Part shown: one piece after another, positions 27,854 through 36,439 of the stretch
Layout: every line of letters starts with the position of its first letter
Position numbering within the stretch: the first letter of the stretch is position 1
Source: a virus
Length of the DNA: 64,000 nt
Direction: 5' to 3' (one strand)
IMG/VR virus record: IMGVR_UViG_3300018080_008375
Span: 1-64,000 of that record
Translations under genes and position numbers: made by a program
Notes under the pieces: model-generated
Seen by the model: only the letters and a program-made list of their open reading frames with translations
What the model was told of the DNA's origin: nothing
Database searches by the model: none

Positions 27854-28318
27854 TTGAAGTCAGTATATCTTTGCGGACCTATCACGGGGCTTTCCTACAA
27901 GGGAACGACGGACTGGCGGAAGTATGTGGCCAGGCATCTTGCGGCGGACATCGTTCCACTGTCGCCCATGCGCGGCAAGGCGTACCTGAAGAAGGAAAAG
28001 GACATAGCGCATTCGTACGACAAGTCGCCGCTGAGCACCGCCAAGGCAATCACTACGCGCGACAGAAACGACGTCATGAACTGCGATGTCATGCTTGTCA
28101 ATTTCCTTGGCGCGAAAGTCGTCTCCGTGGGATCAGTGGTGGAGTTCGGATGGGCTGACGCTTTCCGCAAGCCCGTTGTGCTGGTTTCGGAGAAGGACAA
28201 TATTCACAGGCACCCCATCACGGACGAGATTGTCGGATTCCATGTGGACAATCTCGATGAGGGTATCAAGATCGTCAACTGCATTATGAGCGACGAGTTC
28301 GCCAAGAAGAGCCAATAA
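27854..28318 (+). CDS. nucleoside 2-deoxyribosyltransferase-like
   Basis: Motifs VYLCGPI, RD..DV..CD and GSVVEFGWA...KPV. Confidence 0.85.
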   Translation: MKSVYLCGPITGLSYKGTTDWRKYVARHLAADIVPLSPMRGKAYLKKEKDIAHSYDKSPLSTAKAITTRDRNDVMNCDVMLVNFLGAKVVSVGSVVEFGWADAFRKPVVLVSEKDNIHRHPITDEIVGFHVDNLDEGIKIVNCIMSDEFAKKSQ

Positions 28319-30278: not shown

Positions 30279-31124
30279 TTATGCGCGTGTGAATCTCGGG
30301 CAATTGAGACACATTTGTGGAAATTGTTTGGTTTGAAACAATCTTTTTCTAAAGTCCACATATGGCTCTGAATTCCAGATGTCCAGCGTTTTCGAATCGA
30401 AGATGTTTCCGAAAGACTGCTTTGCGTTGTAGTCGAAGCAGCATGGCAGCACATCGCCATTGATGAAGATGATCATTCTAAGCCTTGCTTCGCAGGTTCT
30501 TACCGCTTCGTAGATTTGGTCGGCGTTGCGGCAGACGGGTCTTTGGTATTCCGGAAGCGTCGTTTGCTGTAGGTTGTTTGCGAAGAACAGGGCTTTCGTA
30601 ATTTTGGGCATAATGCCTAGCTCCCGGCAGAGCGATGCGAAGTCCGCAAGCTGGTGCTCGTTGTGTTTGAACACTGTGAACTGCCCGTAGATTTTTGTGG
30701 AGACATTGTACTTCTGTAGCAGTTCGATGTTGGACAGGACTTTATTGTAGTCTCCGGACCGCCTGGCAACTTGGTACATTTCGGGCGTTGTGGCATCAAG
30801 CGGAACCGCCAAGGAATCTAGTTTGGTTTCCATAAGGGCTTTGGGGTCGGGGATCCTGTTGGCATTTGTCGACAGGTGGACTTTTGAGAACTGCTTGGTG
30901 TAGGCAATGATGTCTATGATGTCCGGATTCAGGAGCGGTTCGCCCCATACGAACGGCGCGACAAGCCTGGCGTATGGTCGTATTTTTTCCGCTACTGCAA
31001 CATACCGGTCGAACGGCATGAATGCGTTTTTCCTGGTTATGAGATTTGCGCCCACCGGGCATTCGGGGCAGGACAGGTTACAGACCGACGATGTTTCCAC
31101 ATAGAAGATGAACGGGTTAGCCAT
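30279..31124 (-). CDS. radical SAM protein with SPASM/twitch domain
   Basis: CNLSCPEC, WGEPLLNP and C...NGDVLPCCFD...GNI...C..C. Confidence 0.9.
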   Translation of the reverse strand: MANPFIFYVETSSVCNLSCPECPVGANLITRKNAFMPFDRYVAVAEKIRPYARLVAPFVWGEPLLNPDIIDIIAYTKQFSKVHLSTNANRIPDPKALMETKLDSLAVPLDATTPEMYQVARRSGDYNKVLSNIELLQKYNVSTKIYGQFTVFKHNEHQLADFASLCRELGIMPKITKALFFANNLQQTTLPEYQRPVCRNADQIYEAVRTCEARLRMIIFINGDVLPCCFDYNAKQSFGNIFDSKTLDIWNSEPYVDFRKRLFQTKQFPQMCLNCPRFTRA

Positions 31125-31938
31125 ATTTTAGGCGCCTCCTTGTTGGCCATGTGATTGTGAGAATCAGATTTTTCTTCTGTTTGCTTAGCCTTTCCCAAGG
31201 CGGAATGGGTCTTTTCACTCGAACGGGTGTTTTGTTGTGTTTTATGTTTACGAGCTTTATTACATCTTCGAATGAAGGAAGTTCCAGGTCCAGGAATTTG
31301 AACAGTTCTTCAAGTCTTGCCCCGCGGATCATTTCTTCGAACTTGTAGATAAATACTTTTTCTTTGGGGATTGAGTCGAGCTGGCGGAGTGCTTCGTCGT
31401 TTACCAGCTTCCAGGACCATGCGCATTTTTGAAGCTTAGTCATTTTGCCCCACTGTTGCTCCGTCGGTTCATTTTCCAGTCGTTCGCAAATGTTTGTTTC
31501 AGCATCTTTTGTTATGACGCTTTTAGGCAGCATCCAGAACGGCACTTTTTTGATGCGCAAGAATATTTGTTCGTCGTATGTTCCGGAATTGAACATGGAC
31601 ACAATTTGTCTCATAGGATTTCTGGTCAGGTAGACAAACTTGGCGTCTGGATAGTGCTTGTGGAGAGCTGAGGCAAAAAATGTAAGGATTCCGTTAATTT
31701 CCCCAAATCTATATCCGTCGTTCAAGGTTTTGCTGATCATATGGCGTCTCTCTTCATACGCCACATTGTCGGATTCCAGACCAGCGTAGACGGAGCGGTA
31801 CTTGTCGAACAGGGAAAACCTGGAATATCCGTCGCGCCGCTCGTGTTGACAGTCTACATCATTTGGAAGGTTCAGGAGTTTTGCTAGAAGATGCGTGCCT
31901 CCATAACCATGTCCGATGCCAAAAAAGATGTTGCTCAT
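31117..31938 (-). CDS. sulfotransferase-family P-loop protein
   Basis: GHGYGGTHLLAKLLN, HE, YPDAKFVYLTRNP...SM and YKFEE. Confidence 0.75.
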   Translation of the reverse strand: MSNIFFGIGHGYGGTHLLAKLLNLPNDVDCQHERRDGYSRFSLFDKYRSVYAGLESDNVAYEERRHMISKTLNDGYRFGEINGILTFFASALHKHYPDAKFVYLTRNPMRQIVSMFNSGTYDEQIFLRIKKVPFWMLPKSVITKDAETNICERLENEPTEQQWGKMTKLQKCAWSWKLVNDEALRQLDSIPKEKVFIYKFEEMIRGARLEELFKFLDLELPSFEDVIKLVNIKHNKTPVRVKRPIPPWERLSKQKKNLILTITWPTRRRLKYG

Positions 31939-32035: not shown

Positions 32036-32314
32036 ATGAAGCGTGGTGAAATCAGATATCTTGAATGCGCATGCACATCGTCCGAGCATGTGGTTAGGGT
32101 TTGTATAGAGGACGACGAGTTTTATCCTATGTTTATCAGTGTTCAGCTTTCCGGAGGGTCGTTTTTCAGGCGCTTATGGGAGGCCGTAAGGCATTTGTTA
32201 GGATATGATTGCAAATACGGTCACTGGGATGAAGTGCTGCTGAACAGGGACGGCATTCGCCGCCTACAGCTTCTGTGCCGGAAAGCCCTTGAAAATGAGC
32301 ATATAGGCTCTTGA
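32036..32314 (+). CDS. hypothetical phage protein
   Basis: C.C...EH...FFRRLW...GHWDE; AAGGAGG RBS. Confidence 0.7.
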   Translation: MKRGEIRYLECACTSSEHVVRVCIEDDEFYPMFISVQLSGGSFFRRLWEAVRHLLGYDCKYGHWDEVLLNRDGIRRLQLLCRKALENEHIGS

Positions 32315-32362: not shown

Positions 32363-33013
32363 ATGAAACCAGACATTTCTACAATCAAGAAACTTCGCGC
32401 CCAGACGGGCGCCGGATATGCCGACTGTAGGGCGGCGCTGAGGGATTCCGGCGGCAACATAGAAGCCGCGGAGAAGGCGCTTGAGGCGGTCGGACTGTTG
32501 AAGGTGAAAGAAAAATTCGGACGGGAGGCAAGCGCGGGCGCTGTTCATGCGTATGTACACGCCGGTGACCGGATCGCGGCAATGGTCGAACTGCGGTGCG
32601 AAACCGATTTTGCCGCCAGGACCGAGGAGTTCAAGGTTGCCGCACATGACATCGCCATGCAGGTTGCGGCGATGAAGCACAAATGGGTGACCGAAGGCGA
32701 CATTCCGCTTGAAGCGCTTGTATACGACGAGAAGGACCCTGTTGGAAAGTGCCTTCTGACGCAGCCGTTTATCAAGGACCAGAGCAGGCTGGTCGGCGAC
32801 ATGCTGGCGGACCTGTCCGCGAAGCTGGGAGAGAACTGTCGCATTGAGCGGGCATGCCGATGGGAAGTGGGAGAAGATCCGGATGAGGGGGAGGCTGATC
32901 AGAACGACGGTCCGCAGGGGGACCTGCGCGCCAGAATGAAGGTCTGGGCGATGTTGTTTATAGCTGTTTCACTGTTTGTTTTGGGAGTTGCCGTCGGAGG
33001 TGCGCTATGCTGA
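32363..33013 (+). CDS. tsf: elongation factor Ts (short form) with a C-terminal TM segment
   Basis: IKKLRAQTGAGYADCRAAL, MVELRCETDFAAR, DIAMQVAA, LLTQPFIKD and LGENCRIER. Confidence 0.9.
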   Translation: MKPDISTIKKLRAQTGAGYADCRAALRDSGGNIEAAEKALEAVGLLKVKEKFGREASAGAVHAYVHAGDRIAAMVELRCETDFAARTEEFKVAAHDIAMQVAAMKHKWVTEGDIPLEALVYDEKDPVGKCLLTQPFIKDQSRLVGDMLADLSAKLGENCRIERACRWEVGEDPDEGEADQNDGPQGDLRARMKVWAMLFIAVSLFVLGVAVGGALC

Positions 33014-33402
33014 AGTTTTTCGGAAACATTGTGCTGGCAGCCGTAATAGCGATTGCCGCTTTTGTTGTGTGTGCCGGCTTCCTGGTGGCGTCAGGTATTG
33101 TTTCAGACTGGCTCGATGCCACTCAATCCAGCGCTGCTTTGGCGGACAGGCTTTCCAAAACCGATGCGTCCAGATGGACCAGAGTAAAGAACGGAAAGGG
33201 CTTCTTGCTGCGCAGGCACCACATCATGCTGTGGTGCTCGTTTCCGTATTTCGGGTCGTTGACACCGGAAGATATCGGCATGGCTCCAGCGGAGCGGTGG
33301 AAGCTGTACAAGCTGTGCGGGAGGCTCGACAGGCAGCTCGCGCCCCTGCCCAAGTTCGATCCTGCTGCTAACATGCTTAAAAATATAGACCGAGGCCCCT
33401 GA
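33007..33402 (+). CDS. hypothetical membrane protein
   Basis: N-terminal TM. Confidence 0.55.
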   Translation: MLKFFGNIVLAAVIAIAAFVVCAGFLVASGIVSDWLDATQSSAALADRLSKTDASRWTRVKNGKGFLLRRHHIMLWCSFPYFGSLTPEDIGMAPAERWKLYKLCGRLDRQLAPLPKFDPAANMLKNIDRGP

Positions 33403-33467
33403 GGTCCACATGGCTGGGATGCTGCCTTGGTACGGCAGAGGGACAGATTCGATTCCTGTCGGGGGCT
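33395..33467 (+). tRNA. tRNA-Thr(GGT), atypical
   Basis: Acceptor GCCCCTG/CGGGGGC; anticodon arm CTGCC-TTGGTAC-GGCAG. Confidence 0.8.
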
Positions 33468-33471
33468 CGTG

Positions 33472-33732
33472 ATGGCTAGGAACAAATTTTACACGCAATG
33501 TCGCCTTCGGCGACCGGTGAAGGGCAGATCAGGGCATTTTCAGGAGATGGTATCGTGGATTCCGTCCGACAAGGCCCAGGTCGGCAAAACGGTGAGACTG
33601 AAGGAGTGGCCGGGCGATACCGAATGGTCCGAAGGGTGGGAAGTTCTTGAATCCTGGAGCAAGCTCGCAGGGGACAGGGCTGAGGCAGCTGCTGTGGATT
33701 ATCTTCACCAGAGGGAGCAGAGTGACGCATGA
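33472..33732 (+). CDS. hypothetical phage protein
   Basis: YTQCRL...SWIP...A.VGK.V.LK...W.V motif. Confidence 0.65.
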   Translation: MARNKFYTQCRLRRPVKGRSGHFQEMVSWIPSDKAQVGKTVRLKEWPGDTEWSEGWEVLESWSKLAGDRAEAAAVDYLHQREQSDA

Positions 33733-34211
33733 ATACGGTGTTCTATCCGGAAAATCCGGTCGACGGAGAACTCAAGTCGCTGTTTCTCGCCGGACCCACC
33801 GAGAGGGGAAATGCCGGGTCGAAAATTACGGCGTGGAGAAAGTCGGCAATCAGCTATTTGCAGGTTAGCGGCTTTGCCGGAAATGTGTTCGTTCCCGAAT
33901 TCCGACCCGGAGCAAACATGAGAGGGATGTGCCCGGGATCCGCTGACCAGAGGGACTGGGAAGGGGATTTTCTGGAGGCGGCGGACTGTATAGTCTTCTG
34001 GGTGCCTCGTAACCTTGGCAACATGCCAGGCTTCACCACAAATATTGAATGGGGAATGTGGTGCGATTCCGGCAAGGCGGTGTTGGGATATCCGCCGTAC
34101 GCTCCGAAAATGAGCCATATGAGGCATTATGCCGATCAGCTTGGCGTTCCCGTGGCGCATACGCTTGGCGAGACCCTTGATTGTGCTATGCTTGTGATCA
34201 GCGGTCTGTAG
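33729..34211 (+). CDS. nucleoside 2-deoxyribosyltransferase-like (type 2)
   Basis: SLFLAGPT, WE...L..AD.I.FW.PR and GFTTNIEWG. Confidence 0.85.
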   Translation: MNTVFYPENPVDGELKSLFLAGPTERGNAGSKITAWRKSAISYLQVSGFAGNVFVPEFRPGANMRGMCPGSADQRDWEGDFLEAADCIVFWVPRNLGNMPGFTTNIEWGMWCDSGKAVLGYPPYAPKMSHMRHYADQLGVPVAHTLGETLDCAMLVISGL

Positions 34212-34614: not shown

Positions 34615-34960
34615 GGGGGTGAATTTGGTTTCGACGTGTACGATTGCGGCATAGGCTGCAGGCAGGAGGGTCGCTGGGACCTCCCTAATCCAACAGCGAA
34701 AAGCAAACGCGAACGAACAGTTTGCAATGGCCGCATAGGCCCGCCGGAGATGCTGCCCAGCCTGTCGGCGGCTTCTCCGGTGCGATGATGGCGGGCTAGC
34801 TGACGGAGGATCGTAGCCTCTCCAGAAGCGAAGCAACAGGCTGCGGACATCCCGGACAGAACCTGCCGGTGGGTGCTGCCTGGATGTATAAAACATCGGA
34901 CAAGCCTGTAGACGCCATGCCAAGGCGTGTGCGGACGGGGTTTCGATACCCCCACCTCCA
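34615..34960 (+). ncRNA. ssrA: tmRNA
   Basis: 5' GGGGGTGAATTTGGTTTCGAC; 3' GACGGGGTTTCGATACCCCCACCTCCA; tag ORF (AN)ANEQFAMAA-TAG. Confidence 0.93.
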
Positions 34961-34972
34961 CAAGTGATTGAT

Positions 34973-35863
34973 ATGACAGAAAAAACAAAAATAGTCTGGG
35001 ACATGGAAACCGGCGATCCGGACGACTATCTGACCCTGCTGCTCCTGTGCGGGCATCCGCGCGTGGACCTGAGGGCAGTCACCATCACGCCCGGAACGCC
35101 GCAGCAGGTCGGGCTCGTTAGGCATGCCCTGAAAGAGTTCAGCCTGGACATTCCTGTCGGGGCATACAACATCGGGCACGAGAAGCAGTGCGTGTCCAAA
35201 TGGCACTACAGGGCGTACGGGAACATTTCGGAATCTCTCGATGCCGAAGAGGGGTGGGTAGTTCTGACGCAGGCGCTGGGTCCGGATGTGACGCTGCTGA
35301 CCGGAGCTCCCCTGAAGAACCTTGGAAAGGCGCTATGGAATGATGCGCTGCCGGTCACCGGCAGGTGGGTAGCCCAGGGCGGCTTTGCCGGCGATGGCGT
35401 GGTTCCTGGCGAGTGGCAGCTGGAGAAGTTCAGGGGCATGGACGCCTGTCCGACCTACAACTTCAACGGCGATCCGAGAAGCGCCTCGGCGGCACTGACA
35501 TGCCAGAACATTAAACAGATTCGCTTGGTGTCGAAGAATGTGTGCCATGGCGTGGCGTACGACCGCAAAGTACACGAGCGTGTGGCGGCGGTCAAGAACA
35601 GGAGCCTGTCCATGAGCCTGATTCACAGGGGCATGGACCTGTATCTAAAGAAGCGCCCGCAGGGCAAGCTGTTCCACGATCCGCTCGCCGCGTGCTGCGC
35701 CATAGACCCGGAGATAGGCAGGTGGTCCGAGCCGGTAGCCATGTTCAGGCGCAAGGGCAAGTGGGGTGCCAGGCTCGTATCCAAAGACAACCCGTATCAG
35801 AAATGCAGGATAATCATGCGTTATGACCATGAGCGGTTTCTGGGCGTTCTGACGGAAGTGTAG
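34973..35863 (+). CDS. inosine/uridine-preferring nucleoside hydrolase family protein
   Basis: WDMETGDPDD, TGAPLKNL, TYNFNGD and FHDPLAA. Confidence 0.85.
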   Translation: MTEKTKIVWDMETGDPDDYLTLLLLCGHPRVDLRAVTITPGTPQQVGLVRHALKEFSLDIPVGAYNIGHEKQCVSKWHYRAYGNISESLDAEEGWVVLTQALGPDVTLLTGAPLKNLGKALWNDALPVTGRWVAQGGFAGDGVVPGEWQLEKFRGMDACPTYNFNGDPRSASAALTCQNIKQIRLVSKNVCHGVAYDRKVHERVAAVKNRSLSMSLIHRGMDLYLKKRPQGKLFHDPLAACCAIDPEIGRWSEPVAMFRRKGKWGARLVSKDNPYQKCRIIMRYDHERFLGVLTEV

Positions 35864-35875
35864 AAAGGAAAGCGA

Positions 35876-36439
35876 ATGAAGTATATGCTTGCAGTGGACC
35901 TGGAGACTACCGGGCTGAATCCGAGGCATCATGAGATCACGCAGATAGGCGCGATCCTGCTGGACAGGGAGTTGAAGGAACTCGGCGAGTTCGAGACGCT
36001 TGTTAAGATCGACTATCCGGAGCGCGGGCTTGAGGGCGGCTTTGATGTGTTCAAATACACCGGTATTACGCAGGACAGTCTCAAAGACGCTCCGACGCTG
36101 AAGAAGTCCCTGCGCGCCATGGAGGTGTTCGTTAGGTCCAAGATCGGCGGGTTTAGCCTGGAAAGCGTGGCGGTGTTCGGCCAGAACCCGCGCTTCGATG
36201 TCGGCTTCCTGGAGGAGGCGTACAGGAGCCTCGGATGGAAGTTTCCGTTCGATTTCCATGTCATCGGCCTTGAGAGTGCGTATGTGTTCTATAGCCTCAA
36301 GAAGAACGGAACGCTGCCGGTCGGTCTCCGCCTGAAGGACATCTGTAAGAAGGCGGGAATCAAGAATGCGCAGGAGCACAATGCCATAGCAGACATTCGT
36401 GCTACAGTCGATTCGCTCAGGGCGCTTTTGGAAAAGTAG
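35876..36439 (+). CDS. DEDDh 3'-5' exonuclease
   Basis: VDLETTGL, GQNPRFD and HNAIAD. Confidence 0.9.
   Translation: MKYMLAVDLETTGLNPRHHEITQIGAILLDRELKELGEFETLVKIDYPERGLEGGFDVFKYTGITQDSLKDAPTLKKSLRAMEVFVRSKIGGFSLESVAVFGQNPRFDVGFLEEAYRSLGWKFPFDFHVIGLESAYVFYSLKKNGTLPVGLRLKDICKKAGIKNAQEHNAIADIRATVDSLRALLEK

Follow-up and report, generated by a model that had tools for sequence, protein, structure and literature searches.

Why would a phage encode an elongation factor Ts (EF-Ts) that ends in what appears to be a membrane anchor? This question is raised by P0001, a 216-residue protein encoded at 32363..33013 (+ strand, stop included) of the window, by which we mean the whole 64,000-nucleotide stretch analysed, positions 1-64,000 of the IMG/VR virus record IMGVR_UViG_3300018080_008375. 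Cellular EF-Ts is regarded as a soluble housekeeping factor. A sequence-only reading of the window had described a short EF-Ts with an intact TDFA loop, an acidic linker and a predicted C-terminal transmembrane anchor, and had suggested that such a protein could concentrate or sequester EF-Tu at the membrane and localise phage translation. Our analysis supports the tail-anchor architecture well and shows that it is conserved in a whole family of proteins. We therefore propose, with a probability of roughly 0.55, that a working short EF-Ts of the Thermus type has become a tail-anchored inner-membrane protein in a lineage of huge phages, where it would boost the recycling of host EF-Tu near the membrane. 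The new element is the anchor, as EF-Ts genes in huge phages are already known.

P0001 belongs to the EF-Ts family by every feature that can be checked in silico. Its reading frame runs from an ATG at 32363 to a TGA at 33011-33013; a TTG 14 codons upstream is a possible alternative start, and the homologs start at the ATG. P0001 scores 56.4 bits with the Pfam family PF00889 (EF_TS), whose cut-off is 27 (E = 4.1e-15), a result reproduced on the genome frame, and a scan of the whole protein returned EF_TS, EF-Ts_N and UBA alone. The closest solved structure is that of Thermus thermophilus EF-Ts with EF-Tu (PDB 1AIP, E = 4.6e-31). An AlphaFold (AF2) model built from 66 homologs has a mean predicted local distance difference test score (pLDDT) of 90, and a Foldseek search with this model placed chains H and C of 1AIP on top (template modelling score 0.74-0.76 on the target, probability 1.00), followed by the EF-Ts of E. 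coli, M. tuberculosis and mitochondria. Neither PHROGs nor the phage GenBank collection yielded a close match that was informative.

The model divides the EF-Ts part of the protein into two regions. Residues 1-54 (32363..32524, + strand) form a UBA-like N-terminal domain (TS-N) with its connecting helix; its three helices (5-15, 19-28 and 33-51) are modelled with pLDDT above 90, and the fold search also returned UBA-domain structures. Since the Pfam scores for EF-Ts_N (18.5 against 33.2) and UBA (14.1 against 22.4) are both under their cut-offs, we base the TS-N assignment on the structure and on the conserved residues in the alignment. Residues 55-170 (32525..32872, + strand) form an EF-Ts core of the subdomain N type, with modelled strands at 58-65, 71-79, 139-143 and 160-168. 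In the HMMER alignment to 1AIP, residues 5-122 correspond to 4-121 of the chain and residues 130-170 to 155-195, and the helical insert of the Thermus protein is shortened in the core by about 33 residues, as it is in the mini EF-Ts of Dehalococcoidia (167-171 residues).

The residues by which an EF-Ts engages EF-Tu are also present. In known complexes (1EFU and 1AIP), the Asp80/Phe81 loop of EF-Ts pushes into the nucleotide site of EF-Tu, and the TS-N domain contacts the EF-Tu G domain. The TDFA loop of P0001 (T81, D82, F83 and A84; 32603..32614, + strand), the counterpart of the Asp80/Phe81 loop of the E. coli protein, is intact: D82 and F83 are invariant in the 66 aligned EF-Ts sequences and in 17/17 representatives of the tailed proteins described below. 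The alignment shows that nearly all universally conserved EF-Ts positions are retained among these tailed proteins, in the N-terminal domain (K9, L11, R12, T15, A17, G18, C22, A25 and L26) as well as in the core (G59, Y64, H66, E76, C79, T81, D82, F83, A85, L131, Q134, K138, D139, E157, R163 and R166). Such a pattern appears to fit the usual docking on EF-Tu, which is a statement about contacts and not about kinetics.

After the core, P0001 continues in frame for another 46 residues. A flexible linker (residues 171-193; 32873..32941, + strand) consists of an acidic stretch, EDPDEGEADQNDGPQGD (residues 171-187, net charge -5), followed by the basic patch LRARMK; its pLDDT drops to 56-63, and residues 169-183 have no predicted secondary structure. 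The linker leads into the putative transmembrane tail anchor, residues 194-216 (VWAMLFIAVSLFVLGVAVGGALC; 32942..33010, + strand), an uncharged run of 23 residues with LRARMK directly ahead of it and 0 residues beyond it, the final residue being Cys216. The acidic linker and the hydrophobic tail proposed from the letters are thus both found. The tail had been placed at 32936-33013; we move its start to 32942, as the earlier start also covers M192 and K193. Our transmembrane assignment was made from Kyte-Doolittle hydropathy in a 19-residue window; the tail peaks at 2.53, whereas residues 1-170 reach no more than 0.66 and contain neither a second hydrophobic segment nor an N-terminal signal peptide. 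In the AF2 model, the tail region is a single helix (184-215). Because of the positive-inside rule and the lack of a signal peptide, we place the EF-Ts domain in the cytoplasm, where it would be held on a flexible tether with the C-terminus just across the membrane.

The tail is not a peculiarity of P0001. Among the first 120 homologs, 8 proteins besides P0001 have a hydrophobic C-terminal segment; 7 further tailed proteins came from a profile search of 1.84 billion cluster representatives, the total rose to 43 when the tailed alignment was used as the query of a second search, and one more was read off a viral contig. At least 44 distinct EF-Ts proteins (43 besides P0001) therefore have the tail-anchor layout; their public annotations read “elongation factor Ts” only. 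In 44/44, the EF-Ts core is followed by a linker, 15-49 residues long in the 20 proteins measured, with 1-4 Lys/Arg in its last 8 residues, and then by an uncharged run of 17-28 residues and 0-8 final residues. Across the family, 102 Lys/Arg lie in the 8 residues ahead of the run and 11 behind it, and the Kyte-Doolittle value of the tails is 2.1-3.3. The last 22 residues have a mean identity of only 15%. Since the layout is fixed while the identity is low, selection appears to act on hydrophobicity and charge placement and not on sequence. Cysteine is found in the last four residues of 20/44 tails; its content is 0.7% inside the run and 2.4% in the cores. The tail is conserved across a clade of close homologs, a check that the sequence-only reading had itself named, and the cellular EF-Ts sampled are without it: the EF-Ts open reading frames (ORFs) at the 80 best cellular species-representative genome loci and at the 80 best metagenome loci have no such tail. 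The motif RWEVG was considered as a marker of the tailed clade and rejected, because ordinary EF-Ts of 200 residues have it too.

The tailed proteins group together in our maximum-likelihood tree of 66 EF-Ts sequences, from which the tail columns were dropped automatically (less than 30% of rows filled). One clade, with a Shimodaira-Hasegawa-like approximate likelihood ratio test (SH-aLRT) support of 96, holds the 17 tailed representatives and 3 untailed huge-phage proteins; all cellular sequences and nine other phage EF-Ts lie on the other side of this branch. As all three untailed members branch from within the tailed ones, the simplest history would be a single gain followed by three losses, and their lack of a tail looks secondary. 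In two of them, the loss is visible in the sequence. The first, L173:9959-10624 in a 340 kb IMG/VR record, matches the EF-Ts of L003, the nearest viral relative, over residues 1-186 (66% identity), and its residues 181-218 correspond, again at 66%, to the final 38 residues of the dephospho-CoA kinase (CoaE) that the syntenic L003 phage encodes downstream. On these alignments, L173 is an in-frame deletion-fusion that removed the tail and most of coaE. The other, L171:9986-10663 in a 316 kb IMG/VR record, stops at a TAA directly after ...RWEIGE; past this stop, in the same frame, an ATG and 28 codons encode a short linker, an Arg and a hydrophobic run (MNDPSNYRDWAYYIIMILLIFTIVSFCSI). Read-through of the TAA is unsupported. 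Since the 316 kb record has no tRNA with the TTA anticodon, a nonsense or split event is the simplest reading. One sub-clade of the tailed proteins retains the Thermus-type helical insert. The nearest cellular sequences in the first tree are the mini EF-Ts of Dehalococcoidia; we rejected naming a host or donor on this ground, because the affinity is weak in the first tree (SH-aLRT 80) and dissolves in the second.

The other phage EF-Ts, outside the tailed clade, are either soluble full-length proteins (L004, L174-L180) or core-only minis. The minis, of about 92-141 residues, occur in other huge phages (44-578 kb records) at L005:3550-3933, L006:10025-10303, L007:9974-10306, L008:9890-10288, L009:9974-10306 and L184-L187, often beside tRNA arrays; they keep C-x-TDFAA[RK]T, and the N-terminal domain is absent, so they are a different reduced form. 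ARAGORN also reported amber-reading tRNAs (anticodon CTA) in two of these huge-phage loci, at L005:7386-7459 and at L006:14890-15046; they hint at TAG reassignment or suppression in these phages. A further group that ranked high in the profile search, P0121-P0136, consists of proteins of 600-1,130 residues with two EF-Ts stretches, presumably resembling plastid-type EF-Ts polyproteins; none has a C-terminal hydrophobic tail.

The element that carries P0001 is a phage. Although the record of the window is a fragment of 99.8 kb with a CheckV completeness estimate of 25%, all other tailed-clade members with visible context lie in viral records of 300-442 kb. The L003 record, of 441,904 bp, is rated 100% complete and encodes a 210-residue EF-Ts whose tail differs from that of P0001, and a large terminase scores above its Pfam cut-off in both the 442 kb record and the 340 kb record. 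As far as context shows, the tailed family thus appears to be restricted to huge phages. One further protein, P0289 on a 461 kb contig, had no match in the viral collection. An EF-Tu GTPase domain was found neither in the complete 442 kb relative nor in the record of the window; the tailed factors would therefore have to act on host EF-Tu.

Could the tailed proteins work in pairs? Thermus-type short EF-Ts work as dimers (PDB 1TFE, 1AIP). For P0001, homodimerisation is a prediction made in silico: the score is 0.58 against 0.01 for the best control, and since the Thermus dimer has been solved (1TFE, 1AIP), this value measures likeness and not binding. The 0.58 mark was reached by 20/30 proteins solved as one-chain pairs and by 1/23 solved as single chains. 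Three runs agreed in at least 93% of contacts, with a partner pLDDT of at least 73. The modelled interface consists of the sheet (57-78 and 162-170) and the tails (200-216), and residues 215-216 of both copies touch. In such a model, both C-termini can exit the dimer on the same side, which would suit a two-helix anchor. Because a terminal Cys is present in 20 of the tails and the last two residues are in contact in the model, it would be a reasonable idea that Cys216 (33008-33010) forms a disulfide bond between the dimer tails on the outer face of the membrane.

ARAGORN found 31 tRNA genes at 3182-55862 of the window, all on the + strand, so that the EF-Ts gene is embedded in a tRNA island; in G003 as well, a tRNA island adjoins EF-Ts. 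One of these genes, tRNA-Thr(GGT) (33395..33468, + strand; also matched by Rfam tRNA), lies shortly after EF-Ts, and a transfer-messenger RNA (tmRNA) gene with the tag ANEQFAMAA (34615..34963, + strand) lies 1.6 kb downstream, found by ARAGORN and by Rfam RF00023 (107.9 bits against a gathering score of 47). On the upstream side is the gene of a small Cys-rich protein of 92 residues with a YLECxCTSxEH motif (32036..32314, + strand), which a PHROG match assigns to phrog_23381. This is a virus-only family, whose Atlas clusters are 89-100% viral, and its homologs are directly upstream of EF-Ts in L003 and L173 and elsewhere in the 316 kb phage. Immediately downstream, the ORF list and hydropathy give a 131-residue ORF with an N-terminal transmembrane segment (33007..33402, + strand), whose ATG overlaps the EF-Ts stop (ATGCTGA) and whose last 8 bases overlap tRNA-Thr(GGT). 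It has no Pfam or PHROG match, and it shows no relationship to a small EamA-like ORF that precedes the EF-Ts gene of L003. Further flanking genes, at 27854-28318, 33729-34211, 34964-35863 and 35876-36439, encode two nucleoside 2-deoxyribosyltransferase-like proteins, an inosine-uridine nucleoside hydrolase and an RNase T-like exonuclease. An RNase T-like gene is found a few genes downstream of EF-Ts in L003 too, and L173 has a homologous ORF of 356 residues. At 30279-31938 on the - strand, divergent from the EF-Ts module, are genes for a radical SAM/SPASM protein and a sulfotransferase-like protein. Promoter and terminator scans gave no excess over shuffled controls.

Based on these results, we propose a mechanism in which the N-terminal 170 residues would fold as a normal EF-Ts and remain in the cytoplasm, while the linker of 15-49 residues with its terminal basic patch would lead to one transmembrane helix that ends at the C-terminus. 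As the helix finishes there, almost nothing would be exposed outside. The protein would probably form a homodimer through the Thermus-like β-sheet with its two tail helices side by side, and the terminal cysteine may staple the two tails on the outer face. The anchored EF-Ts would then recharge host EF-Tu from the guanosine diphosphate (GDP) form to the guanosine triphosphate (GTP) form at the membrane surface, so that translation near the membrane would be favoured during infection, alongside the phage tRNAs and tmRNA. We infer exchange on host EF-Tu next to the membrane because this is the function of the EF-Ts family and no phage EF-Tu was found. The earlier proposal of EF-Tu concentration or sequestration at the membrane, with localised phage translation, is plausible as judged from the sequences, and it gains support from the conservation of the residues that engage EF-Tu and from the lack of an EF-Tu in the complete 442 kb relative. 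A more elaborate scheme can be drawn, in which a disulfide-stapled, tail-anchored dimer makes a membrane-proximal zone of fast EF-Tu recycling, so that translation is organised in space as in a viral, prokaryotic counterpart of endoplasmic reticulum (ER)-anchored eEF1B, and in which stop variants of the L171 type shift the balance between soluble and anchored forms. This scheme is speculative, and we consider it less likely than not.

Several of our own observations weigh against the proposed anchored recycling factor. The dimer score may arise simply because the Thermus EF-Ts dimer, which P0001 resembles, has been solved. The inter-domain helix (40-56) has diverged in most tailed members, whereas cellular EF-Ts conserve G44, K50/K51 and R54 there; this divergence could alter the handling of EF-Tu, and P0001 happens to be the most canonical member of the tailed clade in this helix. 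With about 25% of the phage genome in the window's record, a phage EF-Tu may be encoded elsewhere in the genome. The phage origin of 42 metagenome members of the tailed family is deduced from their place in the tree. Three related phages do without the tail, so it would be dispensable in some settings. The transmembrane ORF directly downstream was considered as a conserved membrane partner of EF-Ts and rejected, as it is unmatched in four related phage records. Finally, no other tail-anchored translation protein was found in the 99.8 kb record; the only other candidates there, two minus-strand ORFs, overlap ORFs on the plus strand and are probably spurious.

The main rival explanation accepts the anchor and reverses its purpose: P0001 would be a membrane-tethered trap or decoy that holds a pool of EF-Tu at the membrane, either to throttle host translation or to protect EF-Tu from host defence or toxin systems that work through EF-Tu or EF-Ts, or to divert such systems. 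Lit and other phage-exclusion systems target EF-Tu, and both EF-Tu and EF-Ts are required by some CdiA toxins. The architecture expected of a trap is identical to that of a recycling factor, and the diverged inter-domain helix might change release kinetics. However, EF-Tu far outnumbers any plausible amount of a phage membrane protein, and it is established biochemistry that GTP or GDP rapidly dissociates EF-Tu-EF-Ts complexes, so stoichiometric sequestration would be hard to achieve. The gene also lies in an island that otherwise adds translation capacity, with its 31 tRNAs and tmRNA, and the catalytic TDF loop is invariant. Because of this genetic setting and this invariance, we favour a local boost of elongation and consider a trap unlikely. 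Alternatively, the anchor may send EF-Ts to a place or time specific to the phage, such as a membrane-bounded infection compartment, a vesicle, or the virion for delivery into the next cell. The confinement of the tail to a huge-phage clade would agree with this idea, as would the many envelope-associated proteins of huge phages (bioRxiv 10.64898/2026.10.24.761521). On the other hand, the locus has no structural or compartment genes, its neighbours being tRNAs, nucleoside-metabolism genes and RNases, and hallmarks of nucleus-forming phages were not seen, although no search was aimed at them. We therefore regard such targeting as rather improbable.

The remaining explanations, progressively less likely, do without a membrane anchor altogether. 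The hydrophobic helix could instead serve protein-protein contact, either in dimerisation or in place of the amphipathic C-terminal module with which longer EF-Ts pack on EF-Tu; it sits where the C-terminal module follows the ...RFE[VL]GEG... motif in ordinary EF-Ts, and the two tails touch in the dimer model. Yet the segment is uniformly hydrophobic and not amphipathic, it has membrane-spanning length with K/R ahead and almost nothing behind, and a specific interface should be conserved, unlike these tails with their 15% identity; the odds of such a role are accordingly slight. The last possibility is an artefact, in which an ordinary short EF-Ts would run on into unrelated sequence downstream because of a lost stop, a frameshift or an assembly error. 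The downstream ORF does start hydrophobic and overlap the EF-Ts stop, and the deletion-fusion in L173 is a real event of this general kind. Nevertheless, the architecture is common to 44 homologs from independent samples, and the identical P0001 protein is found on two contigs, the longer of 254,806 bp. The complete phage L003 has a tail with a different downstream gene. When we read through the stops of 138 ordinary tsf genes, 38 extensions of at least 35 residues were obtained and 0 had a 19-mer above a Kyte-Doolittle value of 2.2. The artefact is effectively refuted: the P0001 tail is neither an artefact nor a one-off, and the concern about a lost stop codon or an assembly error, which accompanied the original proposal, is answered.

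If the anchored recycling factor is real, it would give a first indication that phages govern the place of elongation-factor recycling as well as its amount. The conservation of the tail suggests that huge phages tether a part of the translation machinery to the membrane of the host, and the vague idea that they “intercept translation” would become a matter of specific experiments. The natural variants without a tail, by deletion-fusion or by an in-frame stop, are ready-made comparisons, and the tailed EF-Ts would be a small, naturally evolved tool with which EF-Tu activity could be tethered to membranes.

Among cellular proteins, the 196-residue EF-Ts of T. thermophilus (1AIP; dimerisation domain 1TFE) is the best match to P0001 in sequence and fold, with 36% identity. 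Both proteins are short, without the subdomain C, coiled coil and C-terminal module of the E. coli type, their TDF loops are alike, and the predicted P0001 homodimer would use the Thermus β-sheet. In contrast to the soluble Thermus protein, P0001 gains the 46 residues of linker and transmembrane tail. The disulfide of the Thermus dimer is made by an internal residue, Cys190; at the aligned position, a Cys is found in P0001 and is missing from other members of the clade. The highest core identity (47-53%) is found with the mini EF-Ts of Dehalococcoidia/Chloroflexota (167-175 residues), which have the same deletion of the helical insert. Unlike P0001, they have neither linker nor tail and terminate directly after ...RFE[VL]GE.

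Elongation factors G, Tu and Ts have been described in huge phages, where they were proposed to maintain translation efficiency in infection (Al-Shayeb et al. 2020, PMC7162821). With its tRNA island and tmRNA, the window fits this picture; that paper mentions no membrane anchor on EF-Ts, which sets P0001 apart. The preprint on the envelope-associated proteins of huge phages says nothing on EF-Ts (bioRxiv 10.64898/2026.10.24.761521), and no description of a membrane-anchored EF-Ts was found in the literature searched, including full text on EF-Ts with transmembrane or tail-anchored terms. Among bacterial proteins, P0001 recalls YqjD, ElaB and YgaM of E. coli, which a preprint describes as C-tail-anchored, ribosome-binding proteins of the inner membrane with dimerisation-dependent activity (bioRxiv 10.1101/2024.08.16.608256). 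Like P0001, they have one anchor, at the C-terminus, and engage the translation machinery with a cytoplasmic N-terminal portion; their target is the 50S subunit and they inactivate ribosomes, while that of EF-Ts is EF-Tu. Only the architecture is alike, as the whole-protein Pfam scan does not place P0001 in their family. Their example shows that translation-related factors can work as tail-anchored proteins in bacteria. The nearest functional analogue is eukaryotic: eEF1B, the exchange factor for the EF-Tu homologue eEF1A, is anchored to the ER via kinectin (Life Sci Alliance 2026, PMC13231004). In both cases an exchange factor would be held at a membrane. However, eEF1B is not a homologue of EF-Ts and is anchored by a partner, whereas the putative anchor of P0001 is part of its own polypeptide and is encoded by a virus.

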